From: Flectonema sp. DT1601
Lineage: Eukaryota
Reading direction: 5' to 3'
Assembly (NCBI GenBank): GCA_964019425.1
Contig: OZ025780.1
Coordinates: 930,001 to 994,000, forward strand
Length of the DNA: 64,000 nucleotides
The translations under genes and the position numbers were made by a program. Position 1 is the first letter of the stretch, and the number at the start of each line of letters is the position of its first letter. Below are positions 1 to 28,596 of the stretch, piece after piece. The notes under the pieces were generated by a model that was given only the letters and a program-made list of their open reading frames with translations, did no database searches and was not told the origin of the DNA.

Positions 1-3000
1 AAAAAAAATAAAAAGATACCAACAGGTGGGGTGATGGGTTGCGCCACTGCAATCCAGTCACAAAAAGAAACAAAGGTAATCTCAAGGGTTCTCGACCCTT
101 GGCTCTCCCTGCGCAAGCATCGCATGGAGGGTGACGCTAAGCACCCGGGGGGTACGAAACAAACTTTCCCCCTGCTGTCCTGTTTGAAATAAAAAAAAAA
201 AACAAAGGGATAGAAGTAAACAGAATACGTTACACCTCAACAGGTGACGCTAAACACCCAGGGGATACAAACCAAACTTTCCCCCTGTTGCCCTGTTTGA
301 AATAAATTAAAAAAAGAACAAGAAAACAGAATACAATACTCAGCAATCAGACTCGTTCACTCGCTTCGCCAGAGCCGTTCGAGCCGATGCTCATGTAAAG
401 TTACCTGTTTTCTTTTAACAAATTAAATAAAATAAGATAAATAAAAATAAAGAAGCGCAACGGAGAGGAATACATAACACCTCGACTCTTGCGCTAGCAT
501 CGCAAGGGGGGTACCCGGGAGATACAAACCAAACTTTCTCTGGAATACAATACCTAACAATCAGTGCGTTCACTGGCCTTAGGGCTGTTCGGACTTATGC
601 TTTGGACTGTTCCCTTGCAGAAAAAAAAAGTAAAATAAACCAACTTTGGGACATTAGAAAAGCATAAAATAAAAGTTGCTACAACCAAAAGACAACTGCA
701 AAAAAAAAAGGTTTTTGTAGGGGAGCTACAATGTAGCAATAATGTCACACAGTCATGTGGCAAGCTGGATAAGAGATTTGGGAGAGGAATAGGGGCAGTG
801 AACTTTTGGTTCAGGCCCTTCCCATCGAACAGGACGAAGACTTCTAAAACCTGAGATGAACCAATTGAGTTGAAACAAACAAATAACAGAGACGCAACAC
901 ATACCGGAACATCATCGCAAGCAATGCTTCGGACCTCCGTCGACCTTCGTTCTTCCGGCGGCAAAGGGAAACAAGAAAGAACGGGCAATGAGACAAACCT
1001 GTTAGTTGGTGTTGTGTTGTTGTTAAAAACAAAAACATAAACGCCAGGAAGTTCGACAACGAAGACATCGACATCGATCGCTGCTCTGCAGATGTCCGGC
1101 GGGTGTTTGTCTACACTGTGTTTATTGTTTGTTTTTTTCCCAAGGTTCAACCTTGGGAAGAGAAGTAAAAAATTCCGTCAATGTTGGCCTTCCTGTTCGA
1201 AGGTGCGCACCAATGACGATAAATAGAGTGGGGGGGAGAAAACCTTTGATCCAACTGGATCCCTTCACGAGCCGACATTGCCATGTGAAGTTAAATATTC
1301 TGGCGATGCCAGCTCAGGCGACTTAGCCTGCTTTTTTCTTTAAATAAAAAAAATAAAAAGATACCAACAGGTGGGGTGATGGGTTGCGCCACTGCAATCC
1401 AGTCACAAAAAGAAACAAAGGTAATCTCAAGGGTTCTCGACCCTTGGCTCTCCCTGCGCAAGCATCGCATGGAGGGTGACGCTAAGCACCCGGGGGGTAC
1501 GAAACAAACTTTCCCCCTGCTGTCCTGTTTGAAATAAAAAAAAAAAACAAAGGGATAGAAGTAAACAGAATACGTTACACCTCAACAGGTGACGCTAAAC
1601 ACCCAGGGGATACAAACCAAACTTTCCCCCTGTTGCCCTGTTTGAAATAAATTAAAAAAAGAACAAGAAAACAGAATACAATACTCAGCAATCAGACTCG
1701 TTCACTCGCTTCGCCAGAGCCGTTCGAGCCGATGCTCATGTAAAGTTACCTGTTTTCTTTTAACAAATTAAATAAAATAAGATAAATAAAAATAAAGAAG
1801 CGCAACGGAGAGGAATACATAACACCTCGACTCTTGCGCTAGCATCGCAAGGGGGGTACCCGGGAGATACAAACCAAACTTTCTCTGGAATACAATACCT
1901 AACAATCAGTGCGTTCACTGGCCTTAGGGCTGTTCGGACTTATGCTTTGGACTGTTCCCTTGCAGAAAAAAAAAGTAAAATAAACCAACTTTGGGACATT
2001 AGAAAAGCATAAAATAAAAGTTGCTACAACCAAAAGACAACTGCAAAAAAAAAAGGTTTTTGTAGGGGAGCTACAATGTAGCAATAATGTCACACAGTCA
2101 TGTGGCAAGCTGGATAAGAGATTTGGGAGAGGAATAGGGGCAGTGAACTTTTGGTTCAGGCCCTTCCCATCGAACAGGACGAAGACTTCTAAAACCTGAG
2201 ATGAACCAATTGAGTTGAAACAAACAAATAACAGAGACGCAACACATACCGGAACATCATCGCAAGCAATGCTTCGGACCTCCGTCGACCTTCGTTCTTC
2301 CGGCGGCAAAGGGAAACAAGAAAGAACGGGCAATGAGACAAACCTGTTAGTTGGTGTTGTGTTGTTGTTAAAAACAAAAACATAAACGCCAGGAAGTTCG
2401 ACAACGAAGACATCGACATCGATCGCTGCTCTGCAGATGTCCGGCGGGTGTTTGTCTACACTGTGTTTATTGTTTGTTTTTTTCCCAAGGTTCAACCTTG
2501 GGAAGAGAAGTAAAAAATTCCGTCAATGTTGGCCTTCCTGTTCGAAGGTGCGCACCAATGACGATAAATAGAGTGGGGGGGAGAAAACCTTTGATCCAAC
2601 TGGATCCCTTCACGAGCCGACATTGCCATGTGAAGTTAAATATTCTGGCGATGCCAGCTCAGGCGACTTAGCCTGCTTTTTTCTTTAAATAAAAAAAATA
2701 AAAAGATACCAACAGGTGGGGTGATGGGTTGCGCCACTGCAATCCAGTCACAAAAAGAAACAAAGGTAATCTCAAGGGTTCTCGACCCTTGGCTCTCCCT
2801 GCGCAAGCATCGCATGGAGGGTGACGCTAAGCACCCGGGGGGTACGAAACAAACTTTCCCCCTGCTGTCCTGTTTGAAATAAAAAAAAAAAACAAAGGGA
2901 TAGAAGTAAACAGAATACGTTACACCTCAACAGGTGACGCTAAACACCCAGGGGATACAAACCAAACTTTCCCCCTGTTGCCCTGTTTGAAATAAATTAA

Positions 3001-3360
3001 AAAAAGAACAAGAAAACAGAATACAATACTCAGCAATCAGACTCGTTCACTCGCTTCGCCAGAGCCGTTCGAGCCGATGCTCATGTAAAGTTACCTGTTT
3101 TCTTTTAACAAATTAAATAAAATAAGATAAATAAAAATAAAGAAGCGCAACGGAGAGGAATACATAACACCTCGACTCTTGCGCTAGCATCGCAAGGGGG
3201 GTACCCGGGAGATACAAACCAAACTTTCTCTGGAATACAATACCTAACAATCAGTGCGTTCACTGGCCTTAGGGCTGTTCGGACTTATGCTTTGGACTGT
3301 TCCCTTGCAGAAAAAAAAAGTAAAATAAACCAACTTTGGGACATTAGAAAAGCATAAAAT
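1..3360 (-). repeat. Family B tandem repeat, 1345-bp unit, ~2.5 copies (continues off the left edge; interrupted at 3360 and resumes at 11181)
   Basis: Identical ORFs recur at 554/1899 and 1129/2474 (period 1345). The unit sequence ...AGCATAAAAT|AAAAGTTGCTAC is broken at 3360. Strand assigned from intron-like segments and hairpin orientation. Confidence 0.95.
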
Positions 3361-5010
3361 GCAAGTTTTATAAAAGATGGTAAAGAAATCTTCCCTGTGG
3401 AAGAAGTCAAAATCCACAAAGTAACAAAACTGAAAACGATCGAAAAGCTCACCATTGAAAGATCGTGGCTTGAGAAATGTTTTATCTGGCAAACTTGTTA
3501 CGCATCGGCTCTTTCTATTCTACTTATTGCCAATGGTTCTTCCTCCCCGGCCCCTTCTGTTTTGTTAGATGAGGATGAGCTCACTGGACTCTCCTTGTCA
3601 TTCTCTTCTATTTCTTCCATCTCTTTCCAGACTCCCCCACCTGAACTCATGTCAACGGGATCGCAAACACTTCCTGCTGATTTCGCTATAGTGATAAGAA
3701 CTCAATCTGACATGGGTTCTCAAACCCCCTTGTACAAAAAAAAAGAAGGAAAATTAAGGCTGAAACTTTCCTTGAAATGCCAGATTTTAGAAAACGAATT
3801 AGAGCAAATGAAAGAACGAATTTTTTATGTTCTATTTTTATTTTACTTTAATGCGATGTCAGCCTCCCTCGAGAAAGACAAGCAGTTACTAAATGGATTA
3901 CCTGTTGAGATCAAAGCTACCAACCAGGATCCATCCTCACTTCCTCCTGCGCCCCCTGTTTTAATTATTGAAAAAGATAGAAAAGAATATGAACTTCTGG
4001 AAGGAGTAATTCAACGGTTAACAGCAGAACGCGATGAATCGAAGACTTCTCTTTCTGCACTAGTTCGACAATATGACTTAGTGGAAGATTACAGGAAACG
4101 TGAGCTCGCAAATCTGACTCAGAGAGCAGACCTATCGGAAATGGCGCTCTTTAATTACCATCAAAGGTTTGTTCTTCTGTCGAACGAATTGGAGACCAAA
4201 TGTAATGAGGAAAGAGAAAGTAAAATAAGACTTTTCTATACTCAACAGGAGGTCGAGAGTTTGCGTGCCGCGCGTCCCCGTATGACCCACTTTAGTCAAC
4301 AAGTTTCCCCCCGAACCCCCGTTCTATATGAATCTGTTGCTATGATGAAGATAGCAAAGAACTACCTCTCGCTCTTTACAACTACGAGTAGTCTTTTTAC
4401 TCCTCTTATTAAACCCCTTATCCCTACCCTTAATTATATCACCCCTCTTTGTCCTCTAGCCTCAATTCCTCCGACAATGCCGCAGAGTGAAGCTCTCGAC
4501 CGCACGCCGACCAAGATTTTACGACAAGAGAGTCACGTTATCTCCGTTAAAGAGAATACACCTATTGCGAGACAATGGTCCGAGGGTAGGATTGACTTAC
4601 TCGAGAATTACTGTCGAGCAGTAGATGACTCTCTCGAAACAAACGAGAAAGCGGCAGAGCTCTCAGAACAACTTCTGGATGCCCAACTTCGCCTCTCGGA
4701 GCTGAATCACCAACGGTGTACAACTCACGCAGAGCAGCTTGAGCAATCCATGATGTTAACGGGACTGGCGAGCGATTTAAATGCTCAACTCGCCTTGGCA
4801 CGGTCTCAAATTGCGGCCCTGAAGTTCCAATTAGCTTCATGGGCAGAAGGTTTGAGTCCGCCAGACACAGAAGAACATGAGGAAAATGAAACTCCGCCGA
4901 GAAAGTCTGAGCGTTCAACTCTGAAAAAACGAACCCCTCCATCAAGATATCGTTACAATCGAAGGAGATGTTCTGCTGATGACGTTCACGGTGACTCCAC
5001 CCCCTTGTAA
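3361..5010 (+). CDS. Family A-encoded coiled-coil-rich protein of unknown function, 5'-truncated
   Basis: 537-aa ORF from GTG 3397; the frame is open back to the insertion junction at 3361. Heptad-like E/L/Q-rich segments and a basic, TP-rich C-terminus. A diverged homolog of the C-terminus lies at ~29350-29485 (-). Confidence 0.6.
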   Translation, partial: ASFIKDGKEIFPVEEVKIHKVTKLKTIEKLTIERSWLEKCFIWQTCYASALSILLIANGSSSPAPSVLLDEDELTGLSLSFSSISSISFQTPPPELMSTGSQTLPADFAIVIRTQSDMGSQTPLYKKKEGKLRLKLSLKCQILENELEQMKERIFYVLFLFYFNAMSASLEKDKQLLNGLPVEIKATNQDPSSLPPAPPVLIIEKDRKEYELLEGVIQRLTAERDESKTSLSALVRQYDLVEDYRKRELANLTQRADLSEMALFNYHQRFVLLSNELETKCNEERESKIRLFYTQQEVESLRAARPRMTHFSQQVSPRTPVLYESVAMMKIAKNYLSLFTTTSSLFTPLIKPLIPTLNYITPLCPLASIPPTMPQSEALDRTPTKILRQESHVISVKENTPIARQWSEGRIDLLENYCRAVDDSLETNEKAAELSEQLLDAQLRLSELNHQRCTTHAEQLEQSMMLTGLASDLNAQLALARSQIAALKFQLASWAEGLSPPDTEEHEENETPPRKSERSTLKKRTPPSRYRYNRRRCSADDVHGDSTPL

Positions 5011-5504
5011 TTCTCTTTTCCTTACTTTCACATCACTTTGTTTATTTAGTTTTTTAGCTTATTTATTATTTATTGTTCGTTTTTGTTTGTATTATTTTAT
5101 CGATATGTTTATGTCCGTCAGATCATAACGTTAATCAGGTTAATTGTTAATTGTTAATTATAAATGGTCTAAACCCCAATCCAAGTTCCCAAGGCTTGGC
5201 ATAGATTTGAGTGACGCCTTACTGGCCTCCTCATCCTCTATGAGTGGTGAGGGGGCCAGCAATGGTTTTTTTTTTTTTTTTTTTTTCTCTTATTTCTTTT
5301 TTTCTTTTTCTTTTACTCTAATATGAAATATTTTTGAACAAAATGTGATTATTAATTTAAAAAAAAAAAAAAAAATAATAATGTAAATGAATAATAAAAA
5401 AAAAAAAAAAAAAAACATGCCTTGGGAATACAATCAAAGCCCCAATTAATCGGTCCTTTCTTTTTCCTTCTTGTCAAGTGATCGCTCCACTCGTCGATCA
5501 CCAA

Positions 5505-6345
5505 AACCGATTGTATTTATATCTGTTCTTTTCTCAACGATCGGCTATACCGACCATTTTTTTTTATAAATAATTGTTTTCTTCTTCTCGACGATCAGAT
5601 CCAATTGATCGACCTTTTTTTTTTTTTTTTTTCCTTTATTCCTTCCATCCCTCCCGCTCCCCTAATTTTAAAAAAAACAAGATCAGCTCAGCTTGATCGT
5701 TAATCTTTTTTTCTTTTTTTAATTTAAACTGATTGTATTTATATCTGTTTATTTTTCTCGACGATCGGCTATACCGATCAACCTTTAAAATAATTTCTTC
5801 TTCTCGACGATCAGATCCAATTGATCAACCTTTTCTTTTTTTTTTTCCTCTATTCCTTCCATCCCTCCCGCTCCCCTATTTGTAATAAAAACAAGATCAG
5901 CTCAGCTTGATCGTTAATCTTTTTTTCTTTTTTTAATTTAAACTGATTGTATTTATATCTGTTTATTTTTCTCAACGATCGGCTATACCGATCAACCTTT
6001 AAAATAATTTCTTCTTCTCGACGATCAGATCCAATTGATCAACCTTTTCTTTTTTTTTCCTCTATTCCTTCCATCCCTCCCGCTCCCCTATTTGTAATAA
6101 AAACAAGATCAGCTCAGCTTGATCGTTAATCTTTTTTTCTTTTTTTAATTTAAACTGATTGTATTTATATCTGTTTATTTTTCTCAACGATCGGCTATAC
6201 CGATCAACCTTTAAAATAATTTCTTCTTCTCGACGATCAGATCCAATTGATCAACCTTTTCTTTTTTTTTCCTCTATTCCTTCCATCCCTCCCGCTCCCC
6301 TATTTGTAATAAAAACAAGATCAGCTCAGCTTGATCGTTAATTTT
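5505..6345 (+). repeat. ~212-bp tandem repeat (4 copies) inside family A
   Basis: Units start AAAC(T/C)GATTGTATTTATATC at ~5505, 5726, 5940, 6152; identical ORFs at 5947/6159. Only two copies in the element copy at ~24797-25220. Confidence 0.9.
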
Positions 6346-6670
6346 TTTTTCTTTCTTTTTTGTTGGTCCTAGTCAAGACCTTAAACTGACTAACCGGTCT
6401 TAATTTTAAATAAGTGTTAACCTAGTTTCTCTTTTCCTTTTCAATTTCCTTTTAATACTCTCTATCTGGTCTGTTATGTCATATTTCTCATTTAATTTTA
6501 TCATCCATTTTACTTTTCACTGTTTCCCATCTACATTTTATTTTCAAATAGTTACGGTCTGTTAAAAAAAAAAAAAAAAAGTTTAAATAAGTTAAATTGA
6601 ACATGTTAACTCAATTCCTCAATTCTTCCGTCATGGTCATGACATTCTTTTTCGCTTCTCTAATGCACAA

Positions 6671-6765
6671 GAGATACCATCACTCATGAGATACCAACGC
6701 ACATACGAGATACCAGCACTCCAGAGATACCGACACGCTAGAGATACCAAGTCACTTGAGATACC
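6671..6765 (+). repeat. Six GAGATACC direct repeats with 9-11-nt variable spacers (iteron-like)
   Basis: GAGATACC at 6671, 6688, 6707, 6724, 6741, 6758; also at 17445-17539 and, diverged, at 25507-25601. Confidence 0.9.
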
Positions 6766-7007
6766 TCCTTGTAAATTAATTCCCGGTATTTCAAATTTGA
6801 ATTGATAGTGTCAACTCTGCTTGCTGCTCTTGTTAATGTGTTGTCTCCTGAAAGTGATCTTAACTCCTGTAAAAAGAAAAAAAAAAAGAAATCAAAAAAG
6901 AAGAATTTTCAAACGAAGTTATAACAACCCCTACCACCCATTATGATCAATTCCGCTTGTTTTTTTTTTTTTTTTAAAACAAAAAAAAAAATAAAAAATT
7001 ATAAAAG

Positions 7008-8504
7008 ATTAAACAATGTTATCATTGTATTTTTATCGATCGACTATGTCGATTACTTTCTATTTTCCGTCCTGGTCAAGACGCTAAACTGATTGTTTTT
7101 TTTTTTTTTTTCAAAATTAATAAAAAAGAATATAAAAAAAAAAATAAAAAAAAGAATAAACAATGTTATCATTGTTTTTTTATCGTTCGACTTTGTCGAC
7201 TAATTTCTATTTTCCGTTTTTCTTCTTAAAAAATAAATAAAAAGAATTTAAAAAAAAAAAAAAAAAAAGAATAAACAATGTTATCATTGTTTTTTTATCG
7301 ATCGACTATGTCGATTACTTTCTATTTTCCGTCCTGGTCAAGACGCTAAACTGATTGGTTTTTTTTTTTTTTTCAAAATTAATAAAAAAGAATAAAAAAA
7401 AAAAATAAAAAAAAGAATAAACAATGTTATCATTGTTTTTTTATCGTTCGACTTTGTCGACTAATTTCTATTTTCCGTTTTTTTTTCTTAAAAAATAAAT
7501 AAAAAGAATTTAAAAAAAAAAAAAAAAAAAAAAGAATAAACAATGTTATCATTGTTTTTTTATCGATCGACTTTGTCGACTAATTTCTATTTTCCGTCCT
7601 GGTCAAGACGCTAAACTGATTGTTTTTTCTAAATAAATAAAAAGAATAAAAAAAAAAAAAAAAAAAAAAAGATTAAACAATGTTATCATTGTTTTTTTTA
7701 TCGATCGACTATGTCGATTACTTTCTATTTTCCGTCCTGGTCAGGACGCTAAACTGATTGTTTTTTCTTTAAAAAATAAATAAAAAGAATAAAAAAAAAA
7801 AAAAAAAAAAAAAAAAAAGAATAAACAATGTTATCATTGTTTTGTTATCGATCGACTTTGTCGACTAATTTCTATTTTCCGTCCTGGTCAAGACGCTAAA
7901 CTGATGTTTTTTCTTTAAAAAATAAATAAAAAGAATTAAAAAAAAAAAAAAAAAAAAAAAAAAGAATAAACAATGTTATCATTGTTTTTTTATCGATCGA
8001 CTATGTCGATCACTTTCTATTTCCCGTCCTGGTCAGGACGCTAAACTGATTGTTTTTTCTTTAAAAATAAATAAAAAGAATAAAAAAAAAAAAAAAAGGA
8101 ATAAACAATGTTATCATTGTTTTTATTTTATCGATCGACTATGTCGATTACTTTCTATTTTCCGTCCTGGTCAAGACGCTAAACTGATTGTTTTTTCTTT
8201 AAAAAATAAAAAGAAGGATTTAAAAAAAAAAAAAAAAAAAAAAAGAATAAACAATGTTATCATTGTTTTTTTATCGATCGACTATGTCGATCACTTTCTA
8301 TTTTTCGTCCTGGTCAAGACGCTAAACTGATTGTTTTTTCTTTAAAAATAATAAAAAGGATTTAAAAAAAAAAAAAAAAAAAAAAAAAGAATAAACAATG
8401 TTATCATTGTTTTATTTTATCGATCGACTATGTCGATCACTTTCTATTTTTCGTCCTGGTCAAGACGCTAAACTGATTGTTTTTTCTTTAAAAATAATAA
8501 AAAG

Positions 8505-8552
<48 letters not shown>

Positions 8553-8921
8553 ATAAACAATGTTATCATTGTTTTTTTATCGATCGACTATGTCGATCAC
8601 TTTCTATTTTCCGTCCTGGTCAAGACGCAAAACTGATTGTTTTTTTTCAAAATTAATAAAAAAGAATACAAAAAAAAATAAAAAAAAAAGAATAAACAAT
8701 GTTATCATTGTTTTTTTTTATCGTTCGACGTTGTTGACTAATTTCTAGTTTCCGTTTTTTTTTTTTCTTTTTAAAAAATAAATAAAAAGATTTAAAAAAA
8801 AAAAAAAAGAATAAACAATGTTATCATTGTTTTTTTTATCGATCGACTATGTCGATTACTTTCTATTTTCCGTCCTGGTCAAGACGCTAAACTGATTGTT
8901 TTTTCTTTAAAAAAAAAAAAG

Positions 8922-8956
<35 letters not shown>

Positions 8957-9734
8957 TAAACAATGTTATCATTGTTTTTTTTTATCGATCGACTATGTCG
9001 ATCACTTTCTATTTTCCGTCCTGGTCAAGACGCTAAACTGATTGTTTTTTTTTCAAAATTAATAAAAAAGAATATAAAAAAAAAAAATAAAAAAAAAAAA
9101 GAATAAACAATGTTATCATTGTTTTTTTTTTATCGTTCGACTTTGTCGACTAATTTCTATTTTCCGTTTTTTTTCTTTTTAAAATAAAAAGAATTTAAAA
9201 AAAAAAAAAAAAAAAGAGTAAACAATGTTATCATTGTTTTTTTTTATCGATCGACTATGTCGATTACTTTCTATTTTCCGTCCTAGTCAAGACGCTAAAC
9301 TGATTGTTTTTTTTTTCAAAATTAATAAAAAAGAATAAAAAAAAACAAAAAAAAAAAGAATAAACAATGTTATCATTGTTTTTTTTTTATCGTTCGACTT
9401 TGTCGACTAATTTTTATTTTCCGTTTTTTTTTCTTTAAAAATAAATAAAAAGAATTTAAAAAAAAAAAAAAAAAAAGAATAAACAATGTTATCATTGTTT
9501 TTTTATCGATCGACTATGTCGATCACTTTCTATTTTCCGTCCTGGTCAAGGCGCTAAACTGATTGTTTTTTCTTTAAAATAATAAAAAGGATTAAAAAAA
9601 AAAAAAAAAAAAAAAAAGAATAAACAATGTTATCATTGTTTTTTATCGATCGACTATGTCGATCACTTTCTATTTTCCGTCCTGGTCAAGACGCTAAACT
9701 GATTGTTTTTTCTTTAAAAAATAATTAAAAGGTT

Positions 9735-9765
<31 letters not shown>

Positions 9766-10770
9766 AGAATAAACAATGTTATCATTGTTTTTTTATCGAT
9801 CGACTATGTCGATCACTTTCAATTTTCCGTCCTGGTCAGGACGCTAAACTGATTGTTTTTTCTTTAAAAATAAATAAAAAGAATAAAAAAAAAAAAAAAA
9901 AAAAAGGAATAAACAATGTTATCATTGTTTTTTTTTTATCGATCGACTATGTCGATTACTTTCTATTTTCCGCCCTGGTCAAGACGCTAAACTGATTGTT
10001 TTTCTTTAAAATAATTAAAAGGATTTAAAAAAAAAAAAAAAAAAAAAAAAGAATAAACAATGTTATCATTGTTTTTTTTCTATCGATCGACTATGTCGAT
10101 CACTTTCAATTTTCCGTCCTGGTCAGGACGCTAAACTGATTGTTTTTTCTTTAAAAATAAATAAAAAGAATAAAAAAAAAAAAAAAAAAAAAAGGAATAA
10201 ACAATGTTATCATTGTTTTTTTTCTATCGATCGACTATGTCGATCACTTTCAATTTTCCGTCCTGGTCAGGACGCTAAACTGATTGTTTTTTCTTTAAAA
10301 ATAAATAAAAAGAATAAAAAAAAAAAAAAAAAAAAAAGGAATAAACAATGTTATCATTGTTTTTTTTCTATCGATCGACTATGTCGATCACTTTCAATTT
10401 TCCGTCCTGGTCAGGACGCTAAACTGATTGTTTTTTCTTTAAAAATAAATAAAAAGAATAAAAAAAAAAAAAAAAAAAAAAGGAATAAACAATGTTATCA
10501 TTGTTTTTTTTCTATCGATCGACTATGTCGATCACTTTCAATTTTCCGTCCTGGTCAGGACGCTAAACTGATTGTTTTTTCTTTAAAAATAAATAAAAAG
10601 AATAAAAAAAAAAAAAAAAAAAAAAGGAATAAACAATGTTATCATTGTTTTTTTTCTATCGATCGACTATGTCGATTAATTTCTATTTTCCGTCCTGATC
10701 GAGACGCTAAACTGATTGTTTCTTTTTTTAAATAATAAATAAAAAAAAAAAGAAAAAAAAAAAAAAAAAA
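7008..10770 (+). repeat. Satellite array of family A, ~120-bp long and ~90-bp short units separated by T-tract/A-tract linkers
   Basis: Core AATAAACAATGTTATCATTG(T)nATCGATCGACTATGTCGATTACTTTCTATTTTCCGTCCTGGTCAAGACGCTAAACTGATTG repeated roughly 30 times. Confidence 0.97.
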
Positions 10771-10955
10771 AGAGCATCTCCCTGCTATCCTCATATCCCC
10801 ACAATAATATTATACCTTTTCATTTTCTCTTTCCTTTTCTGGTCTTTTTTTTTTCTTTTTTTCCTTTTTCATACAACGTTTTTTATTTATATTTTATTTT
10901 TTTTTTTTTTTTTTCATGTTTGATTATTTCCTCTTCATATTTTTTTTCTATTCTT

Positions 10956-10986
<31 letters not shown>

Positions 10987-11180
10987 CTCTACCTCTCTCT
11001 TAATTCTGTTCGTTTCTTTGAAACGAAAATTCATTTGAATATTATTCCTTGGTCAGCAACCATCATTGTCGCCCTTTGGGCCTGTTAAAAAAAAAAAAAA
11101 AAATAAAAAGAAAGTTTACATCGGGAATAGGGCAGGAGCCAAAAGCTCCCAGTCCGTTACTTCCCACCTTTTCGAAATTC

Positions 11181-12270
11181 AAAGTTGCTACAACCAAAAG
11201 ACAACTGCAAAAAAAAAAGGTTTTTGTAGGGGAGCTACAATGTAGCAATAATGTCACACAGTCATGTGGCAAGCTGGATAAGAGATTTGGGAGAGGAATA
11301 GGGGCAGTGAACTTTTGGTTCAGGCCCTTCCCATCGAACAGGACGAAGACTTCTAAAACCTGAGATGAACCAATTGAGTTGAAACAAACAAATAACAGAG
11401 ACGCAACACATACCGGAACATCATCGCAAGCAATGCTTCGGACCTCCGTCGACCTTCGTTCTTCCGGCGGCAAAGGGAAACAAGAAAGAACGGGCAATGA
11501 GACAAACCTGTTAGTTGGTGTTGTGTTGTTGTTAAAAACAAAAACATAAACGCCAGGAAGTTCGACAACGAAGACATCGACATCGATCGCTGCTCTGCAG
11601 ATGTCCGGCGGGTGTTTGTCTACACTGTGTTTATTGTTTGTTTTTTTCCCAAGGTTCAACCTTGGGAAGAGAAGTAAAAAATTCCGTCAATGTTGGCCTT
11701 CCTGTTCGAAGGTGCGCACCAATGACGATAAATAGAGTGGGGGGGAGAAAACCTTTGATCCAACTGGATCCCTTCACGAGCCGACATTGCCATGTGAAGT
11801 TAAATATTCTGGCGATGCCAGCTCAGGCGACTTAGCCTGCTTTTTTCTTTAAATAAAAACAATAAAAAGATACCAACAGGTGGGGTGATGGGTTGCGCCA
11901 CTGCAATCCAGTCACAAAAAGAAACAAAGGTAATCTCAAGGGTTCTCGACCCTTGGCTCTCCCTGCGCAAGCATCGCATGGAGGGTGACGCTAAGCACCC
12001 GGGGGGTACGAAACAAACTTTCCCCCTGCTGTCCTGTTTGAAATAAAAAAAAAAAACAAAGGGATAGAAGTAAACAGAATACGTTACACCTCAACAGGTG
12101 ACGCTAAACACCCAGGGGATACAAACCAAACTTTCCCCCTGTTGCCCTGTTTGAAATAAATTAAAAAAAGAACAAGAAAACAGAATACAATACTCAGCAA
12201 TCAGACTCGTTCACTCGCTTCGCCAGAGCCGTTCGAGCCGATGCTCATGTAAAGTTACCTGTTTTCTTTT
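11181..12270 (-). repeat. Family B unit, remainder of the copy interrupted at 3360
   Basis: Matches the unit sequence from 672 onward; ORF 11063-11659 shares its N-terminal part with 554-1150. Confidence 0.9.
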
Positions 12271-12290
12271 AAGGAGCTGAAAAGCAAAAA

Positions 12291-14890
12291 AAGTTCACTG
12301 CCCCTATTCCTCTCCCAAATTTCTTATTCAGCTTGCCACATGACTGTGTGACATTATTGCTACATTGTAGCTCCCCTACAAAAACCTTATTTTTTGCAGT
12401 TGTCTTTTGGTTGTAGCAACTTTTATTTTATGCTTTTCTAATGTCCCAAAGTTGGTTTATTTTACTTTTTTTTTCTGCAAGGGAACAGTCCAAAGCATAA
12501 GTCCGAACAGCCCTAAGGCCAGTGAACGCACTGATTGTTAGGTATTGTATTCCAGGGAAAGTTTGGTTTGTATACTTTATTTTTATTTTATTTTATTTAA
12601 TTTGTTAAAAGAAAACAGGTAACTTTACATGAGCATCGGCTCGAACGGCTCTGGCGAAGCGAGTGAACGAGTCTGATTGCTGAGTATTGTATTCTGTTTT
12701 CTTGTTCTTTTTTTAATTTATTTCAAACAGGGCAACAGGGGGAAAGTTTGGTTTGTATCCCCTGGGTGTTTAGCGTCACCTGTTGAGGTGTAATGTATTC
12801 TGTTTACTTCTATCCCTTTGTTTTTTTTTTTTTTTTTTTATTTCAAACAGGACAGCAGGGGGAAAGTTTGTTTCGTACCCCCCGGGTGCTTAGCGTCACC
12901 CTCCATGCGATGCTTGCGCAGGGAGAGCCAAGGGTCGAGAACCCTGGAGATTACCTTTGTTTCTTTTTGTGACTGGATTGCAGTGGCGCAACCCATCACC
13001 CCACCTGTTGGTATCTTTTTATTTTTTTTATTTAAAGAAAAAAGCAGGCTAAGTCGCCTGAGCTGGCATCGCCAGAATATTTAACTTCACATGGCAATGT
13101 CAGCTCGTGAAGGGATCCAGTTGGATCAAAGGTTTTCTCCCCCCCCACTCTATTTATCGTCATTGGTGCGCACCTTCGAACAGGAAGGCCAACATTGACG
13201 GAATTTTTTACTTCTCTTCCCAGGGTTGAACCTTGGGAAAAAAACAAACAATAAACACAGTGTAGACAAACACCCGCCGGACATCTGCAGAGCAGCGATC
13301 GATGTCGATGTCTTCGTTGTCGAACTTCCTGGCGTTTATGTTTTTGTTTTTAACAACAACACAACACCAACTAACAGGTTTGTCTCATTGCCCGTTCTTT
13401 CTTGTTTCCCTTTGCCGCCGGAAGAACGAAGGTCGACGGAGGTCCGAAGCATTGCTTGCGATGATGTTCCGGTATGTGTTGCGTCTCTGTTATTTGTTTG
13501 TTTCAACTCAATTGGTTCATCTCAGGTTTTAGAAGTCTTCGTCCTGTTCGTTGGGAAGGGCCTGAATCAAAAGTTCACTGCCCCTATTCCTCTCCCAAAT
13601 TTCTTATTCAGCTTGCCACATGACTGTGTGACATTATTGCTACATTGTAGCTCCCCTACAAAAACCTTATTTTTTGCAGTTGTCTTTTGGTTGTAGCAAC
13701 TTTTATTTTATGCTTTTCTAATGTCCCAAAGTTGGTTTATTTTACTTTTTTTTTCTGCAAGGGAACAGTCCAAAGCATAAGTCCGAACAGCCCTAAGGCC
13801 AGTGAACGCACTGATTGTTAGGTATTGTATTCCAGGGAAAGTTTGGTTTGTATACTTTATTTTTATTTTATTTTATTTAATTTGTTAAAAGAAAACAGGT
13901 AACTTTACATGAGCATCGGCTCGAACGGCTCTGGCGAAGCGAGTGAACGAGTCTGATTGCTGAGTATTGTATTCTGTTTTCTTGTTCTTTTTTTAATTTA
14001 TTTCAAACAGGGCAACAGGGGGAAAGTTTGGTTTGTATCCCCTGGGTGTTTAGCGTCACCTGTTGAGGTGTAATGTATTCTGTTTACTTCTATCCCTTTG
14101 TTTTTTTTTTTTTTTTTTTATTTCAAACAGGACAGCAGGGGGAAAGTTTGTTTCGTACCCCCCGGGTGCTTAGCGTCACCCTCCATGCGATGCTTGCGCA
14201 GGGAGAGCCAAGGGTCGAGAACCCTGGAGATTACCTTTGTTTCTTTTTGTGACTGGATTGCAGTGGCGCAACCCATCACCCCACCTGTTGGTATCTTTTT
14301 ATTTTTTTTATTTAAAGAAAAAAGCAGGCTAAGTCGCCTGAGCTGGCATCGCCAGAATATTTAACTTCACATGGCAATGTCAGCTCGTGAAGGGATCCAG
14401 TTGGATCAAAGGTTTTCTCCCCCCCCACTCTATTTATCGTCATTGGTGCGCACCTTCGAACAGGAAGGCCAACACTGACGGAATTTTTTACTTCTCTTCC
14501 CAGGGTTGAACCTTGGGAAAAAAACAAACAATAAACACAGTGTAGACAAACACCCGCCGGACATCTGCAGAGCAGCGATCGATGTCGATGTCTTCGTTGT
14601 CGAACTTCCTGGCGTTTATGTTTTTGTTTTTAACAACAACACAACACCAACTAACAGGTTTGTCTCATTGCCCGTTCTTTCTTGTTTCCCTTTGCCGCCG
14701 GAAGAACGAAGGTCGACGGAGGTCCGAAGCATTGCTTGCGATGATGTTCCGGTATGTGTTGCGTCTCTGTTATTTGTTTGTTTCAACTCAATTGGTTCAT
14801 CTCAGGTTTTAGAAGTCTTCGTCCTGTTCGTTGGGAAGGGCCTGAATCAAAAGTTCACTGCCCCTATTCCTCTCCCAAATTTCTTATTCA
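12291..14890 (+). repeat. Family B, inverted orientation, 1280-bp variant, two units plus short terminal redundancy, ending 38 nt after the CAAAA loop
   Basis: ORFs at 13226/14506 and 12818/14098 (period 1280); reverse complement of the 1-3360 unit with an internal deletion. Confidence 0.9.
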
Positions 14891-14994
14891 AAAAAGGAAA
14901 CAATCAGTTTAGCGTCTCGATCAGGACGGAAAATAGAAATTAATCGACATAGTCGATCGATAGAAAAAAAAAAACAGTGATAACATTGTTTATT

Positions 14995-15030
<36 letters not shown>

Positions 15031-16317
15031 TTTTTAATTATTTTAAAGAAAAAACAATCAGTTTAGCGTCTTGATCAGGACGGAAAATAGTAAGTAATCG
15101 ACATAGTCGATCGATAAAAAAAAACAATGATAACATTGTTTATTCCTTTTTTTTTTTTTTATTCTTTTTATTTATTTTTAAAGAAAAAACAATCAGTTTA
15201 GCGTCCTGACCAGGACGGAAAATAGAAAGTAATCGACATAGTCGATCGATAAAAAAAACAATGATAACATTGTTTATTCTTTTTTTTTTTTTAATTTAAT
15301 TCTTTTTATTAATTTTTAAAAAGAAAAAAAAATGGAAATAGAAATTAGTCAACAAAGTCGAACGATAAAAAAAACAATGATAACATTGTTTATTCTTTTT
15401 TTTGTATTTTTTTATATTCTTTTTTATTAATTTTGAAAAAAAAACAATCAGTTTAGCGTCTTGACCAGGACGGAAAATAGAAAGTAATCGACATAGTCGA
15501 TCGATAAAAAAAACAATGATAACATTGTTTATTCTTTTTTTTTTTTTTTTTTTTTTAATTCTTTTTATTTATTTTTTAAAAAGAAAAAAAATGGAAAATA
15601 GAAATTAGTCAACAAAGTCGAACGATAAAAAAAAACAATGATAACACTGTTTATTCTTTTTTTTTTTATTTTTTTTATATTCTTTTTTATTAATTTTGAA
15701 AAAAAAAACAATCAGTTTAGCGTCTTGACCAGGACGGAAAATAGAAAGTAATCGACATAGTCGATCGATAAAAAAACAATGATAACATTGTTTATTCTTT
15801 TTTTTTTTTTATTTTAAATTCTTTTTATTTATTTTTTAAAGAAAAAAAAACGGAAAATAGAAATTAGTCGACAAAGTCGAACGATAAAAAAAAACAATGA
15901 TAACATTGTTTATTCTTTTTTTTGTATTTTTTTATATTCTTTTTTATTAATTTTGAAAAAAAAAACAATCAGTTTAGCGTCTTGACCAGGACGGAAAATA
16001 GAAAGTAATCGACATAATCGATCGATAAAAAAAACAATGATAACATTGTTTATTCTTTTTTTTTTTTTTTTTTTTTTTTAAATTCTTTTTATTAATTTTT
16101 TAAAGAAAAAAAACGGAAAATAGAAATTAGTCAACAAAGTCGAACGATAAAAAAAAACAATGATAACATTGTTTATTCTTTTTTTTTATTTTTTTTTTTT
16201 AATATTTTTTTTTTATTTTGAAAAAAAAAACAATCAGTTTAGCGTCTTGACCAGGACGGAAAATAGAAAGTAATCGACATAGTCGATCGATAAAAAAAAC
16301 AATGATAACATTGTTTA
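14891..16317 (-). repeat. Family A satellite array, minus orientation (left part; continues at 23444-24359)
   Basis: Reverse-complement units; begins with the terminal-unit variant CGTCTCGATCAGGACG. Confidence 0.95.
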
Positions 16318-17042
16318 CTGTAAAGGGAAATATTCTTGTGGGGAAAAACCCGCGAGTTTTTCTCATTTTTCCTAAATCCGCGAGAATATTTCCCCGCGAG
16401 AATATTTCCCTGCTAACAAACATTTTGCCCAGCCATTTTTTTTTTCCCCTTGTGAAAGAAAAGGTGTGAAAATACAATAAACTAGGAAAATTTATTTAGT
16501 GCAGTTATATTTTATTGGTGTGCTGTAAGTAGAAAAATATAATTAGAAGTGAACATATAAATTGAATCATTCAAATTGCTGTGAGGGAACTTATACAAAA
16601 GAGAGAAGAAAACAAAATTAAAAGTAAATAGAAACAAGCTAAGGGAATTTATAAAATAGGGAGAAAAATATACTGTAAAGGGAAATATTCTTGTGGGGAA
16701 AAACCCGCGAGTTTTTCTCATTTTTCCTAAATCCGCGAGAATATTTCCCCGCGAGAATATTTCCCTGCTAACAAACATTTTGCCCAGCCATTTTTTTTTT
16801 CCCCTTGTGAAAGAAAAGGTGTGAAAATACAATAAACTAGGAAAATTTATTTAGTGCAGTTATATTTTATTGGTGTGCTGTAAGTAGAAAAATATAATTA
16901 GAAGTGAACATATAAATTGAATCATTCAAATTGCTGTGAGGGAACTTATACAAAAGAGAGAAGAAAACAAAATTAAAAGTAAATAGAAACAAGCTAAGGG
17001 AATTTATAAAATAGGGAGAAAAATATAGGGGAAAACATAGAT

Positions 17043-19478
17043 TTAATCAATGTTGATAACTTCAGGTCCTACTTCAATTTCAGGTACTTCTTCAAAATCC
17101 TGAACACTGTTAGGATTAGGAACTGAAGAAATTGAAGAATCTGGGTCAGAATAGTAGCCTGAAAGATCATCAACATCAATAGTGGTTTGGGAGCCATCAA
17201 CTGCATAAAAGCTAGTTGTGTCTGAAATTGACTGGGATTCACCTAGATGATAAGGGGTAAGTGCCCTGTTAAAGCCAGCAATAATAGTCTCCTTTGGTGT
17301 TTCATAGTAAGACTCAATAACCCAAATAGTTACGGTCTGTTAAAAAAAAAAAAAGTTTAAATAAGTTAAATTGAACATGTTAACTCAATTCCTCAATTCT
17401 TCCGTCATGGTCATGACATTCTTTTTCGTTTTTCTAATGCACAAGAGATACCATCACTCATGAGATACCAACGCACATACGAGATACCAGCACTCCAGAG
17501 ATACCGACACGCTAGAGATACCAAGTCACTTGAGATACCTCCTTGTAAATTAATTCCCGGTATTTCAAATCTGAATTGATAGTGTCAACTCTGCTTGCTG
17601 CTCTTGTTCATGTGTTGTCTCCTGAAAGTGATCTTAACTCCTATAAAAAGAAAAAAAAAAAAAAAGAAATCAAAAAAGAAGAATTTTCAAACGAAGTTAT
17701 AACAACCCCTACCACCCATTATGATCAATTCCGCTTGTTTTTTTTTTTTTTTTAAAAACAAATAAAACAAATAAAAAAAAAAAAATTATAAAAGATCAAA
17801 CAATGTTATCATTGTTTTTTTTTATCGATCGACTCTGTCGACTAATTTCTATTTTCCGTTTTTTTTCTTTAAAAAATAAATAAAAAGAATTTAAAAAAAA
17901 AAAAAAAAAAAGATTAAACAATGTTATCATTGTTTTTTTATCGATCGACTATGTCGATTACTTTCTATTTTCCGTCCTGGTCAAGACGCTAAACTGATTG
18001 TTTTTTTCAAAATTAATAAAAAAGAATATAAAAAAAAAAATAAAAAAAAAAAAAAAGAATAAACAATGTTATCATTATTTTTTCTATCGTTCGACTTTGT
18101 CGACTAATTTCTATTTTCCGTTTTTTTTCTTTAAAAATAAATAAAAAGAATTTAAAAAACAAAAAAAGAATAAACAATGTTATCATTTTTTTTTTTTTAT
18201 CGATCGACTATGTCGATCACTTTCTATTTTCCGTCCTGGTCAAGACGCTAAACTGATTGTTTTTTTTTTTCAAAATTAAAAAAGAATATAAAAAAAAAAA
18301 AATAAAAAAAAAAAAAGAATAAACAATGTTATCATTGTTTTTTTTATCGATCGACTCTGTCGACTAATTTCTATTTTCTTTTTTTTCTTTAAAAAATAAA
18401 TAAAAAGAATTTAAAAAAAAAAAAAAAAAAGAATAAACAATGTTATCATTGTTTTTTTATCGATCGACTATGTCGATTACTTTCTATTTTCCGTCCTGGT
18501 CAAGACGCTAAACTGATTGTTTTTTTCAAAATTAATAAAAAAGAATATAAAAAAAAAATAAAAAAAAAAGATTAAACAATGTTATCATTGTTTTTTTTAT
18601 CGTTCGACCTTGTCGACTAATTTCTATTTTCCGTTTTTTTCTTTAAAAATAAATAAAAAAGAATTTAAAAAAAAAAAAAAAAAAGAATAAACAATGTTAT
18701 CATTGTTTTTTTATCGATCGACTATGTCGATTACTTTCTATTTTCCGTCCTGGTCAAGACGCTAAACTGATTGTTTTTTTCAAAATTAATAAAAAAGAAT
18801 ATAATAAAAAAAATAAAAAAAAAATAAAAAAAAAATAAAAAAAAAATAAAAAAAAAAAGATTAAACAATGTTATCATTGTTTTTTTTTATCGTTCGACCT
18901 TGTCGACTAATTTCTATTTTTTTTTTCTTTAAAAATAAATAAGAAAGAATTTAAAAAAAAAAAAAAAAAAGAATAAACAATGTTATCATTGTTTTTTTTA
19001 TCGATCGACTCTGTCGACTAATTTCTATTTTCTTTTTTTTCTTTAAAAAATAAATAAAAAGAATTTAAAAAAAAAAAAAAAAAAGAATAAACAATGTTAT
19101 CATTGTTTTTTTATCGATCGACTATGTCGATTACTTTCTATTTTCCGTCCTGGTCAAGACGCTAAACTGATTGTTTTTTTCAAAATTAATAAAAAAGAAT
19201 ATAAAAAAAAAAATAAAAAAAAAATAAGAAAAAAATAAAAAAAAAAAGATTAAACAATGTTATCATTGTTTTTTTTTATCGTTCGACCTTGTCGACTAAT
19301 TTCTATTTTTTTTTCTTTAAAAATAGATAAAAAAGAATAAAAAAAAAAAAAAAAAAAAAGAATAAACAATGTTATCATTGTTTTTTTATCGATCGACTAT
19401 GTCGATTACTTTCTATTTTCCGTCCTGGTCAAGACGCTAAATTGATTGTTTCTTCTTTAAAAATAAATTAAAAAAAAA

Positions 19479-19515
<37 letters not shown>

Positions 19516-19883
19516 AATAAACAATGTTATCATTGTTTTTATCGATCGGCTTTGTCGACTAATTTCTATTTTCCGTCCTGGTCAAGACGCTAAACTGATT
19601 GTTTTTCTAAAAATAAATAAAAAGAATAAAAAAAAAAAAAAAAAAAAAAAGAATAAACAATGTTATCATTGTTTTTTTATCGATCGACTCTGTCGACTAA
19701 TTTCTATTTTCCGTTTTCTTTTCTTTAAAAAATAAATAAAAAGAATAAAAAAAAAAAAAAAAAAAAAAAGAATAAACAATGTTATCATTGTTTCTTATCG
19801 ATCGACTTTGTCGACTAATTTCTATTTTCCGTCCTGGTCAAGACGCTAAACTGATTGTTTTTTCTTTAAAAATAAATAAAAGA

Positions 19884-19916
<33 letters not shown>

Positions 19917-20259
19917 AATAAACAATGTTATCATTGTTTTTTTATCGTTCGACTCTGTCGACTAATTTCTATTTTTTTTTTCTTTAAAAAATAAATAAAA
20001 AGAATAAAAAAAAAAAAAAAAAAAAAAAGAATAAACAATGTTATCATTGTTTTTTTATCGATCGACTCTGTCGACTAATTTCTATTTTCCGTTTTCTTTT
20101 CTTTAAAAAATAAATAAAAAGAATAAAAAAAAAAAAAAAAAAAAAAGAATAAACAATGTTATCATTGTTTCTTATCGATCGACTTTGTCGACTAATTTCT
20201 ATTTTCCGTCCTGGTCAAGACGCTAAACTGATTGTTTTTTCTTTAAAAATAAATAAAAG

Positions 20260-20294
<35 letters not shown>

Positions 20295-23055
20295 AATAAA
20301 CAATGTTATCATTGTTTTTTTTTATCGATCGACTTTGTCGACTAATTTCTATTTTCCGTCCTGGTCAAGACGCTAAACTGATTATTTTTTTCTTTAAAAA
20401 ATAAATAAAAAGAATAAAAAAAAAAAAAAAAAAAAAATGAATAAACAATGTTATCATTGGTTCTTATCGATCGACTTTGTCGACTAATTTCTATTTTCCG
20501 TCCTGGTCAAGACGCTAAACTGATTGTTTATTCTTTTAAAAAATAAATAAAAGATATAAAAAAAAAAAAAAAAAAAAAGAAATAAACAATGTTATCATTG
20601 GTTTTTTTTATCGATCGACTTTGTCGATTACTGTCTACTTTCCGTCCTGGTCAAGACGCTAAACTGATTTTTTTTTTTTTTTTTAAAAATTAATAAAAAG
20701 AATATAAAAAAAAAAAAAAAAAAAAAATGAATAAACAATGTTATCATTGTTTCTTATCGATCGACTTTGTCGACTAATTTCTATTTTCCGTCCTGGTCAG
20801 GACGCTAAACTGATTGTTTTTTCTTTAAAAAATAAATAAAAAGATAAATAAAAAAAAAAAAAAAAAAAAAGGAATAAACAATGTTATCATTGTTTTTTTT
20901 ATCGATCGACTATGTCGATTACTTTCTATTTTCCGTCCTGGTCAGGACGCTAAACTGATTGTTTTTTCTTTAAGAAATAAATAAAAAGTTAAAAAAAAAA
21001 AAAAAAAAAAAAAAAGGAATAAACAATGTTATCATTGTTTTTTTTTTATCGATCGACTATGTCGATTACTTTCTATTTTCTGTCCTGGTCAAGACGCTAA
21101 ACGGAAGTTTTTTCTTTAAAATAATTAAAAGGATTTAAAAAAAAAAAAAAAAAAAAAAAAAGAATAAACAATGTTATCATTGTTTTTTTTTCTATCGATC
21201 GACTATGTCGATTGATTTCTATTTTCCGTCCTGATCGAGACACTAAACTGATTGTTTCCTTTTTTTTTAAATAATAAATAAAAAAAAAAAAAATAAAAAA
21301 AAAAAAAAAAAAGAGCATCTCCCTGCTATCCCTCATATCCCCACAATAATATTATACCTTTTCATTTTCTCTTTCCTTTTCTGGTCTTTATTTTTTTTTT
21401 TCCTTTTTCATACAACGTTTTTTTATTTATATATTTTTTTTTTTTTTTTTTCATGTTTGATTATTTCCTCTTCATATTTTTTTTCTTTTTTCTTTTCTTT
21501 CTTTTTTTTCTTTTTTTTCTCTGCCTCTCTCTTAATTCTGTTCGTTTCTTTGAAACGAAAATTCATTTGAATATTATTCCTTGGTCAGCAACCATCATTG
21601 TCGCCCTTTGGGCCTGTTAAAAAAAAAAAAAATAAAAAGAAAGTTTACATCGGGAATAGGGCAGGAGCCAAAAGCTCCCAGTCCGTTACTTCCCACTTTA
21701 TCGAAATTGCTTGCCTGTCTCTTAGGGAAGATGTTCGCAAATCAGGTAAAACTGGGATTTTAGGGATTTGAGAATCATCAAAGTTCTGTCCAGTTTCCTG
21801 TGCAGCCCTTTGAAGTTCCTCAATCTCCTTTTGCCTTTTTTTTTGTTTTGTTAAAATAGAATTTATCTCTTCAGAATACCAATTACAAAACTTGTTTCTA
21901 AATCTTTGCTTCAAACCAGCAAAAACTGAAATGTCCAGTGGTTGTAGCTTACCTGTCCAACCAGCTGGTATAAATATTGGCAGGTAGCCAAAGGATAAAA
22001 AGAAATCAAACATGGTACAATCATCCTGGCCACTAAAATGATCAAGAAGGATAATAAATATTTGGTTTTCATCAAGATTGTTACTCTCAACAATCTTAAG
22101 TCTGATTGGGTGAAGGTGAAATTCAATGTACTGCCTGGTTAGTTGTTTATTGGCAAAATGGTTTGTTGAACCAGAGGATAATATAAAACATTTGCCCTGA
22201 AGATTAGGAGATAGCTTTGGTTGACTGCGAGTAGTTTTGCCAGGTACAATCAAACAGAAGGGGTGGATATCACCTGCCTGTGAAACACAAGCAATACCTG
22301 TGATCTGCCTTTTATCATTGGCACAAGTAATTGGGACTTGAGTGGCCCCCCTTTGTTCCAAGGTCTTCTTTGGTGCTGGTGTTAACTGTAGCCCTGTGTG
22401 ATCAATATTTAATACACAGCAGGGTGGAACTTCACAGTCATGTATTGCCTGTTTTAGTTCCATTGTAAACTCCCTTTGTGCTTCAAGGAGATTCTTCTCT
22501 TGAAGGGGTTTACTTGCAGTTGCTGAGCGCCAAACAAATCCTCTTGCACCCATAAACTTCTTTGCCCATTCAGTTGTGAATGTAATTTCCCTTTGTGGGT
22601 CATTTCTGTAGTATATGGCCTTGGCTGTGGCCTTAACTACCAGACTGTTGATTGAAGCACCAAACCTTCTTAAGTTCCTTAGGTGTGCTAAGACCTCTTC
22701 TTCATTTGTTTCTGAAAGGTGGGAAGGTCTTCCAGCTTTTCGCTTGACTGCCTGCATACTGTTCCTTTCTCTATAAAGCTTAACTGCATGTCTTGCAGTT
22801 GTCTCTGCAAGTCTCTTTCCCTTCACCTTGGTTCCACACCCTGATCCCTGCTGCTAAGTTGGTGGCCACTGACATCCTCCTACCTATCTCTATCAGTTCT
22901 TCTTTTTCCCACTTCACCTGATTTCTCTTTCCCTTTTCCTCTCTTACTTGCCTAGCAATGCTTCTTACTATTGGTCCAGGTAGGTTGAATCTTGGTGGTG
23001 GTGTATTTCCATCCTTCTTTAGGAAGGAAGTAATAAGTGGCTGTTCCTTTGGCAT
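17043..23055 (-). pseudogene. pogo-family transposase (CENP-B-like HTH + DDE_1) in pieces: 23055-~22826, frameshift, 22826-21704, then 17327-17043
   Basis: Motifs VLNIDHTG, KRQITGI, IILLDHFSGQ, IPAGWTGKLQPLDISVFAGLK. Rejoining across the insert reads ..SSLRDRQAIWVIESYYETPKETIIAGFNRA..EVINID*. Confidence 0.9.
17328..21703 (+). mobile_element. Family A element, 5'-truncated copy inserted in the pogo transposase
   Basis: Starts at the equivalent of 6550, has its own satellite array (~17795-21310) and the same 3' end; AAAT on both flanks. Confidence 0.9.

Positions 23056-24639: not shown

Positions 24640-24674
<35 letters not shown>

Positions 24675-26895: not shown

Positions 26896-26926
<31 letters not shown>

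Positions 26927-28561: not shown

Positions 28562-28596
<35 letters not shown>

Follow-up and report, generated by a model that had tools for sequence, protein, structure and literature searches.

What copies repeats whose 3' ends share a CAAAA hairpin amid diverged flanks? The question arises from a 64,000-nt stretch of AT-rich, eukaryotic DNA in Flectonema sp. DT1601 (contig OZ025780.1, positions 930,001 to 994,000; hereafter the window), in which three repeat families, named A, B and C, form truncated, tandem and nested copies (Table 1). A sequence-only reading had taken the hairpin for the cis signal of one mobilising enzyme, the three different families for non-autonomous elements, and their autonomous partner for a Penelope-like element or a Helitron.

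Table 1. Coordinates of the features in the window, with 3' ends counted in nucleotides from the last loop base
Feature	Position	Strand	3' end	Remarks
B(-) array, left part	1-3360	-		1345-bp head-to-tail unit; hairpins 793-818, 2138-2163; 3' end left of window
A1	3361-11180	+	+36 (11180)	7.8-kb 5'-truncated R2-group copy; 1 bp of target lost, no duplication
C-terminal 549 codons of ORF	3361-5010	+		extension behind endonuclease domain; P0184 residues 639-1187
Family A 3' UTR	5011-11180	+		6170 bp
212-bp array (x4) in A 3' UTR	5504-6359
~143-bp satellite in A 3' UTR	~6960-10773
A1 outer stem	11123-11127 with 11161-11165	+
A1 core hairpin	11130-11155	+		4 bp, 1x2 internal loop, 5 bp, CAAAA loop
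B(-) array, right part	11181-12272	-		hairpin 11302-11327; 5' junction 12272
C piece, 27 nt	12266-12292	-		bridges B(-) and B(+); 100% match to 31544-31570
B(+)	12289-14889	+	+37/38	two 1280-bp units plus 41 nt starting in loop; end +37
B(+) hairpins	13558-13583, 14838-14863	+
Inverted A satellite stretch	14890-24359	-		target of B(+) and of pogo element 16318-23443
A2	17323-21708	+	+34/35	5'-truncated, inside pogo-type transposase ORF; hairpin 21659-21684
A4	24360-29147	+	+35/36	3' UTR copy; hairpin 29097-29122; inverted A satellite head-to-head on left
A3	26685-27116	+	+30 to +33	nested in A4 satellite; hairpin 27069-27094; 5' junction approximate, inside MITE end; poly-A ambiguity at 3' end
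Second ORF-to-UTR link	29248-29491	-		last 47 codons of sister-subfamily ORF run into family A start
A5	29492-34504	+		starts inside nested piggyBac fragment; hosts C and two MITEs
C	30560-32721	+	+35 to +37	801-bp partial unit plus one 1361-bp unit; end +35
C hairpins	31311-31336, 32672-32697	+
Inverted A satellite stretch	34842-37364	-		contains piggyBac-like element at TTAA
Host gene, P4-type ATPase	40320-44297			short introns
Host gene, coiled-coil membrane protein	46053-47727
Host gene, PSP1-domain protein	53297-53968
Host gene, purple acid phosphatase	61467-62516

The hairpin and its distance to the insertion ends

The pattern GGGC-N6/7-CAAAA-N5-CWGYCC has 11 matches in the window, all of them where a shared CAAAA hairpin had first been placed, and none in 100 dinucleotide shuffles (mean 0.00, maximum 0). 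Pairing is kept in 45 of 45 cells across the five distinct hairpin rows (A1, A2, B(+), B(-) and C), and the nine pairs comprise three changed on both sides, two changed on one side and four that are invariant. The three double-changed pairs lie in the upper stem, in agreement with the claim that this stem varies by compensatory pairs, but 44 of 500 shuffles also reach three; the covariation score as such was matched by one shuffle in 500. As the rows represent three related lineages only, we regard the covariation as suggestive rather than strong. A search with a covariance model returned all 11 copies plus a truncated one (12263-12329), and revealed no fourth hairpin family.

The hairpin was assigned to its strand because this is also the sense strand of the upstream ORF described below. 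G-U wobbles had been said to fix the strand, and although the strand itself was correct, there are two wobble events only, which are insufficient alone. By raw folding energy, the reverse strand is the more stable in three of four cases, whereas z-scores favour the CAAAA strand in all four. Rfam gave no match at gathering score over the window and the B and C units. Pattern scans returned 19 metagenome loci and 58 from viral contigs, which we rejected as chance matches: three of the 77 have a fully paired upper stem, and all three are one Thermus-like coding sequence (GC 0.68-0.70).

The distance from loop to 3' end, reported earlier as 30-38 nt, falls in this range in all six terminal copies of the window, although the junctions 11174, 21703 and 29141 had been placed 5-6 nt too early. 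Modal ends are +36 for A, +37 for B and +35 for C, and no copy ends at the loop. Further ends were found in chimeric gene calls on other contigs (79 proteins in one scan, 149 in another); being derived from protein sequences, they are accurate to a codon, and they presuppose that these contigs come from the same genome, as identities of 93-100% suggest. Eight of them concern family A: four require a terminal C at +36 (P0144, P0146, P0174 and P0267), three are compatible with +36 and one is short by 4-5 nt (P0406). The two off-window C ends (P0121 and P0133) are both compatible with +35. No B end outside the window was detected among the scanned gene calls (0/6 B-derived look-ups found), and the fixed end of B represents one junction only.

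The hairpin is a terminal feature in six of the 11 copies, while the other five (793, 2138, 11302, 13558 and 31311) are read through inside tandem arrays. A break ~130 nt past the 11302 hairpin was rejected as a B end, as it is the split of one B array by insertion A1. Indeed, 3361-11180 represents one insertion, because the B(-) array continues across 3360/11181 with one base missing. At the A2 site, the intact transposase reads Q-A-R-W in four of the seven cluster members (the remaining three are the copy in the window and two that stop before this point). Because intact transposases read across the site, 2-3 bp of target were lost there, and a 7-nt microhomology considered at this junction was rejected. 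Similarly, C is inserted in an A tail with one base lost, one added and no duplication. Target loss at the three rebuilt empty sites (A1, A2 and C) is therefore 1 bp in two cases and 2-3 bp in the third, and neither target duplication nor poly(A) is present at any of them. Insertions have hit a B array, a pogo ORF, satellites and the element's own ORF; the six targets in the window are different, AT-rich and show no target-sequence specificity. DNA transposons in the window have normal TA or TTAA flanks, unlike the retroelement sites. The earlier description of fixed 3' ends with variable 5' truncation (A copies start at 3361, 17323, 24360, ~26685 and 29492) is borne out by the four A ends in the window and the eight outside it, with no LTR.

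Sharp ends without poly(A), sharing A-Y-T-C at all three modal positions, could also arise if the hairpin were an RNA 3'-end formation signal, cut by a host or element nuclease 35-37 nt downstream, with the RT starting at the free end; such sharp cutting would yield unit-length B and C RNAs able to circularise or to template-jump. We consider this unlikely, as five of the 11 hairpins are read through in arrays, searches of the junctions gave no hammerhead core or HDV-like fold, and the B(-) variant has ATCC where the modal ends have A-Y-T-C.

The open reading frame joined to family A

The frame at 3361-5007 has no Pfam match at cut-off and three homologues in the protein collection, in clusters of 47, 14 and 235 gene calls (15, 14 and 15 of them listed). 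It is identical to P0181 over 549/549 aa and 99% identical to P0177 and P0184. Upstream of the shared C-terminus, P0181 carries RT (FADD), CCHC knuckle, RHD and PD..E.T.P motifs; P0177 and P0184 also extend upstream into RT, and P0151 matches RVT_1 (E 2.4e-26) and zf-RVT (E 3.5e-7). All 12 aligned relatives keep the CCHC, RH, PD..E.T.P and K..Y residues without change, and the protein is predicted from these residues to have a restriction-like endonuclease (RLE). We take the motif behind the zinc knuckle to resemble that of HERO. An overlapping N-terminal fragment has two zinc-finger-like motifs, and overlapping records, none of them uninterrupted, suggest a full ORF of roughly 1750 aa.

A sequence search of the PDB gave R2 proteins as the best five of seven matches (top E 2.7e-23), with LINE-1 at 4.5e-6. 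A fold search with a predicted model (mean pLDDT 73) likewise placed R2 at ranks 1-7 (E 3e-36, ~950 columns), followed by LINE-1 (2e-21) and, far behind, telomerase (1e-9). Relatives were found at ~30-35% identity, the nearest atlas clusters being from molluscs, chordates and cnidarians, and none in viral contigs. In addition, there are two sister RT families, 54-70% identical to the main one, of which one (P0347) is joined to A-UTR sequence. The linked ORF was searched for GIY-YIG and helicase motifs, without a match. An RT-endonuclease profile gave nothing significant among 1714 segments of the six-frame translation of the window, in line with the truncation of the copies.

The ORF runs into family A not only in A1 but also at a second place, where 29492-29352 is identical (47/47) to the C-terminus of P0128 and P0127 and the sequence beyond matches 24360-24454. 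Because the ORF-to-UTR link occurs at two places in the window, family A is, on sequence grounds, almost certainly the 3' UTR of an RLE-type non-LTR retrotransposon; the element has the RT type, the CCHC, RH and PD-(D/E)xK motifs, the precise 3' end and the lack of LTRs that define such elements. Family A is thus the 3' UTR of an RT-endonuclease element instead of a non-autonomous repeat, and the partner upstream is neither Penelope-like nor a Helitron, since the linked protein is R2-like with a putative RLE motif.

The 549-aa extension has generic coiled-coil look-alikes only (atlas top match 0.90). It is missing from the relatives P0152 and P0153, its distal part diverges between two subfamilies, and a ubiquitin hydrolase domain stands in its place in P0156, P0159 and P0166. 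In the UTR, the ~143-bp satellite has a palindromic core and alternating ~115-bp variants, and is spread by the retrotransposon as part of this UTR.

Nested DNA transposons also travel in the UTR, because a partial piggyBac copy was carried along with its flank (29492-30062, plus strand) in an inverted A copy. A piggyBac-like element (35283-37080, minus strand) lies at TTAA inside A satellite, and a tandem pair of ~790-bp MITEs, which have long terminal inverted repeats (32803-34369), occupies a TA-rich site in an A tail, for which A3 has a different MITE end (~26685-26835) at the corresponding site. A5 is broken off ~110 nt short of the hairpin. The pogo-type transposon (16318-23443, DDE_1) is flanked by TA; its left end is duplicated in tandem (355 bp), its ORF is interrupted by A2, and intact 544-aa copies exist on other contigs. 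Farther right, a 34-bp A UTR fragment (37587-37620) adjoins a frame-broken gene with weak AAA-domain similarity (38041-39600, plus strand). A diverged ~560-bp tandem duplication (80%, 49213-50282) is followed by a 49-bp piece identical to the piggyBac end at 36949-36997, and the element at 51096-52243 has 164-bp terminal inverted repeats (97%) and a transposase-like frame (51736-52068) without Pfam match. Among the host genes, the phosphatase (61530-62513) has its best named match in Diplonema papillatum (51%), with transcriptome matches of up to 73%, so that the host, judged by this one gene, is likely a diplonemid (a marine protist); the frame at 63579-64000 is presumably ribosomal L31-like.

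A terminal hairpin, tandem arrays, insertion without duplication and nested transposons carried along could also be explained if a Helitron or Helentron copied by rolling circle and the hairpin served as its terminator. However, the linked ORF is an RT, and CTRR is found near the end at one of six junctions, where it is part of the target repeat. Furthermore, directly after the end, five of six junctions have A or G instead of the T expected for insertion between A and T or between two Ts, and an 11-18-nt terminal inverted repeat is present in none of the four cases tested (as judged by the features given in the consulted part of PMC11417382). Rolling-circle copying is largely refuted by these observations, and we consider it extremely improbable. 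A reverse reading, with the fixed end as rolling-circle origin, was dropped after the RT ORF had been linked.

Families B and C

No coding capacity for RT or endonuclease was found in the B and C units of the window; eight ORFs have no Pfam family at cut-off, and B and C gave no match to 31 RT-family proteins beyond chimeric overlaps. A spurious ORF in C belongs to a cluster of 70 gene calls, one member of which is present on 31 contigs. The families are not independent of one another: homology links B with C over ~600 bp (score 92, against a best of 59 in 100 dinucleotide and of 65 in 100 block shuffles) and A with C over ~160 bp (score 138; best dinucleotide and block shuffles 68 and 67, respectively); between A and B, no significant similarity was found outside the hairpin. 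Because of these two homologies, the hairpin was inherited and kept amid diverged flanks, not acquired by convergence.

Exact head-to-tail junctions occur in two B subfamilies, with at least three B units in one array. The two subfamilies are connected by the 27-nt C piece, which is joined to them through short shared A/T runs and is likely a template switch. There are three head-to-head junctions (12272/12289, 24360 and 29491/29492). Simple twin priming fails to account for them, as the inverted portions are not upstream parts of the same unit. A C 5' boundary at ~31892-31895 recurs in three gene calls on other contigs (P0128, P0261 and P0265), 26 nt from the position that matches the 5' junction of C in the window, which hints at a defined RNA start. 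A second recurring C boundary (32193-32196) is found in two gene calls. Just beyond the B and C unit ends (13600-13612 and 31340-31372), a pyrimidine tract plus CAG looks like a splice acceptor and might serve in trans-splicing or circle formation.

Searches for known signals were negative: ARAGORN found no tRNA gene in the window, the hammerhead core CUGANGA..GAAA is absent from the sense strand of A, B and C and from the junctions, and an HDV-like descriptor (our own, run without positive control) gave no match at the ends. As non-coding units with a shared hairpin and A-like ends, B and C are likely non-autonomous passengers, as had been proposed.

Alternatively, B, C or both could be the tandem 3' ends of autonomous sister elements with enzymes of their own. 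The existence of two sister RT families, one of them fused to A-UTR sequence, and the long arrays in A's own UTR fit this possibility, and every B and C copy in the window is truncated at its 5' end, which would hide any upstream ORF. Nevertheless, no ORF adjoins the three 5' junctions of B and C in the window, the recurring C 5' boundary is as in a self-contained unit, and each unit has its own hairpin. We therefore find it quite improbable that B and C are such tails.

Partial tandems, inverted 5' copies and 30-40-nt tails also invite a comparison with Penelope-like elements (PLEs), for which they are described as traits (in the consulted part of PMC8557442). B and C might be moved by a PLE with GIY-YIG and RT, of the Naiad/Chlamys type, located elsewhere; this type is described there without hammerheads, RT start in an AC-rich stem-loop is reported for one PLE (in the part consulted of PMC11167929), and B(+) begins in the loop. 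The last point weighs little, as the loop is one of six runs of at least four As per B unit, and a programmed break in the loop was rejected for the same reason (one event among six A-runs). Moreover, no copy stops at the loop, the same hairpin and end spacing are found on an R2-group element, and the linked ORF lacks the GIY-YIG motif. Mobilisation by a PLE thus seems very unlikely.

A mechanism like that of R2, and known elements

The reading that we favour, and consider probable, is that the hairpin is an RNA structure bound by the R2-group protein for target-primed reverse transcription, with B and C copied in trans. The hairpin is a likely cis signal, as first suggested. The RLE would nick AT-rich DNA without strict target, with two nicks nearly opposite each other, while the protein would hold the stem-loop and bring into its active site the RNA position 35-37 nt past the loop. 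From there, synthesis would proceed 5'-ward until a stop or a template switch, so that early stops would give 5' truncations and near-opposite nicks the 1-3 bp losses. In the arrays of B and C, synthesis could start inside a read-through transcript behind any hairpin, giving partial tandems. B and C would be copied in trans by the protein of the main element or of a close sister; as sister RT families exist, A, B and C may depend on more than one enzyme.

Arrays would not be maintained by truncation alone; this would require template jumping or an RNA that is circular or terminally redundant. The C 5' boundary, ~825 nt before the end, hints at a terminally redundant C RNA. It is thus conceivable, although we advance it only tentatively, that B and C are self-renewing non-coding retroelements with a circular or terminally redundant RNA and no ribozyme, which borrow a non-site-specific R2-type protein and use the 26-nt hairpin as a ruler for the start of reverse transcription within the transcript. 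If so, an R2-type enzyme would make the tandem and inverted architecture so far credited to PLEs and retrozymes.

Several features of this mechanism are known from R2. In R2Bm, a 3'-terminal stem-loop and a single-stranded tail are needed for template placement, the stem tolerates compensatory changes and template jumping takes place (according to the part of PMC11194090 consulted); R2 SIDEs keep their 3' fold through compensatory changes (PMC3414825, consulted in part), and the two nicks of an avian R2 are reported to be offset by 2 nt (as stated in a portion of PMC13708176). As in R2, one ORF encodes N-terminal zinc-finger-like motifs, RT, a CCHC knuckle and a predicted RLE. Like R2 and its SIDEs, the system also combines a 3'-terminal stem-loop and short single-stranded tail with passengers that keep the fold compensatorily, precise 3' and varied 5' ends, and template switching (as presented in the consulted parts of PMC3414825 and PMC11194090). 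In contrast to R2 proper, which has a fixed 28S rDNA site, the element lies outside rDNA (no rRNA match was found in the window) and has no fixed target; it further differs by the 549-aa C-terminal extension and by a 6.2-kb 3' UTR with satellites and nested DNA transposons. Unlike R2 SIDEs, which are defined by a 5' HDV-like ribozyme and an origin through internal deletion, the passengers form head-to-tail and head-to-head arrays of 1.3-kb units without poly(A), in which no HDV-like ribozyme (descriptor and Rfam) and no match to the element's ORF were detected.

An RLE element without target specificity is also known in HERO (PMC4640811), beside which we set ours by description. HERO is listed from animals (PMC4640811, PMC9004415; both consulted in part), and no HERO passenger family or 3' hairpin was found in the literature searched.

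Stringent LINE-SINE pairs (eel and zebrafish L2, plant L1) are comparable in their compensatory stem, their kept loop and flank bases and a tail common to autonomous and non-autonomous elements, but they involve an APE endonuclease, poly(A) or short-repeat ends and short tRNA-headed SINEs instead of 1.3-kb units (as described in part of PMC3747384). B and C lack the tRNA, 7SL or 5S head and the Pol III promoter of SINEs (ARAGORN 0; Rfam none at gathering score). With PLEs and non-LTR retrozymes, they share partial tandems, inverted 5' copies and non-coding tandem units (PMC8557442; bioRxiv 10.64898/2026.07.22.740005), head-to-head inversions and exact tandems being described as typical of PLEs (PMC8557442), in which RT start is tied to a stem-loop as well (PMC11167929; these three sources consulted in part). 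PLEs differ, however, by a telomerase-like RT with GIY-YIG, whereas the linked enzyme is R2-like, and retrozymes by a hammerhead in each unit, of which none was found in A, B and C (core search and Rfam).

The system works like R2 with passengers and falls outside the definitions of R2 proper, SIDEs, SINEs, retrozymes, PLEs and Helitrons. That a LINE can share its 3' stem-loop with passengers is already known (R2 SIDEs and stringent LINE-SINE pairs), while the passengers of this host, which are tandem and inverted, tail-less and ribozyme-less, look like a new form of such sharing. No published description of the element, or of diplonemid PLEs, was found in a search that left aside Repbase, subscription journals and bioRxiv supplements, and SLACS-annotated RT families were the only matches in the D. 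papillatum supplements. In the consulted part of a diplonemid genome paper, rigorous transposon identification is described as yet to come (PMC10161547).

These results turn an orphan motif into a defined pair, namely an R2-group protein that is young, high in copy number and not site-specific, and a ~60-nt RNA tail, in which natural variation reveals the exchangeable and the fixed bases. They also caution against taking a tandem and inverted arrangement with 30-40-nt tails as proof of a PLE. RNA recognition in the RLE group is known mainly from rDNA-specific R2, which is under development for gene insertion (according to the parts consulted of PMC13580325 and PMC13708176), and the minimal trans-acting tail of a non-specific relative would extend this knowledge of R2.
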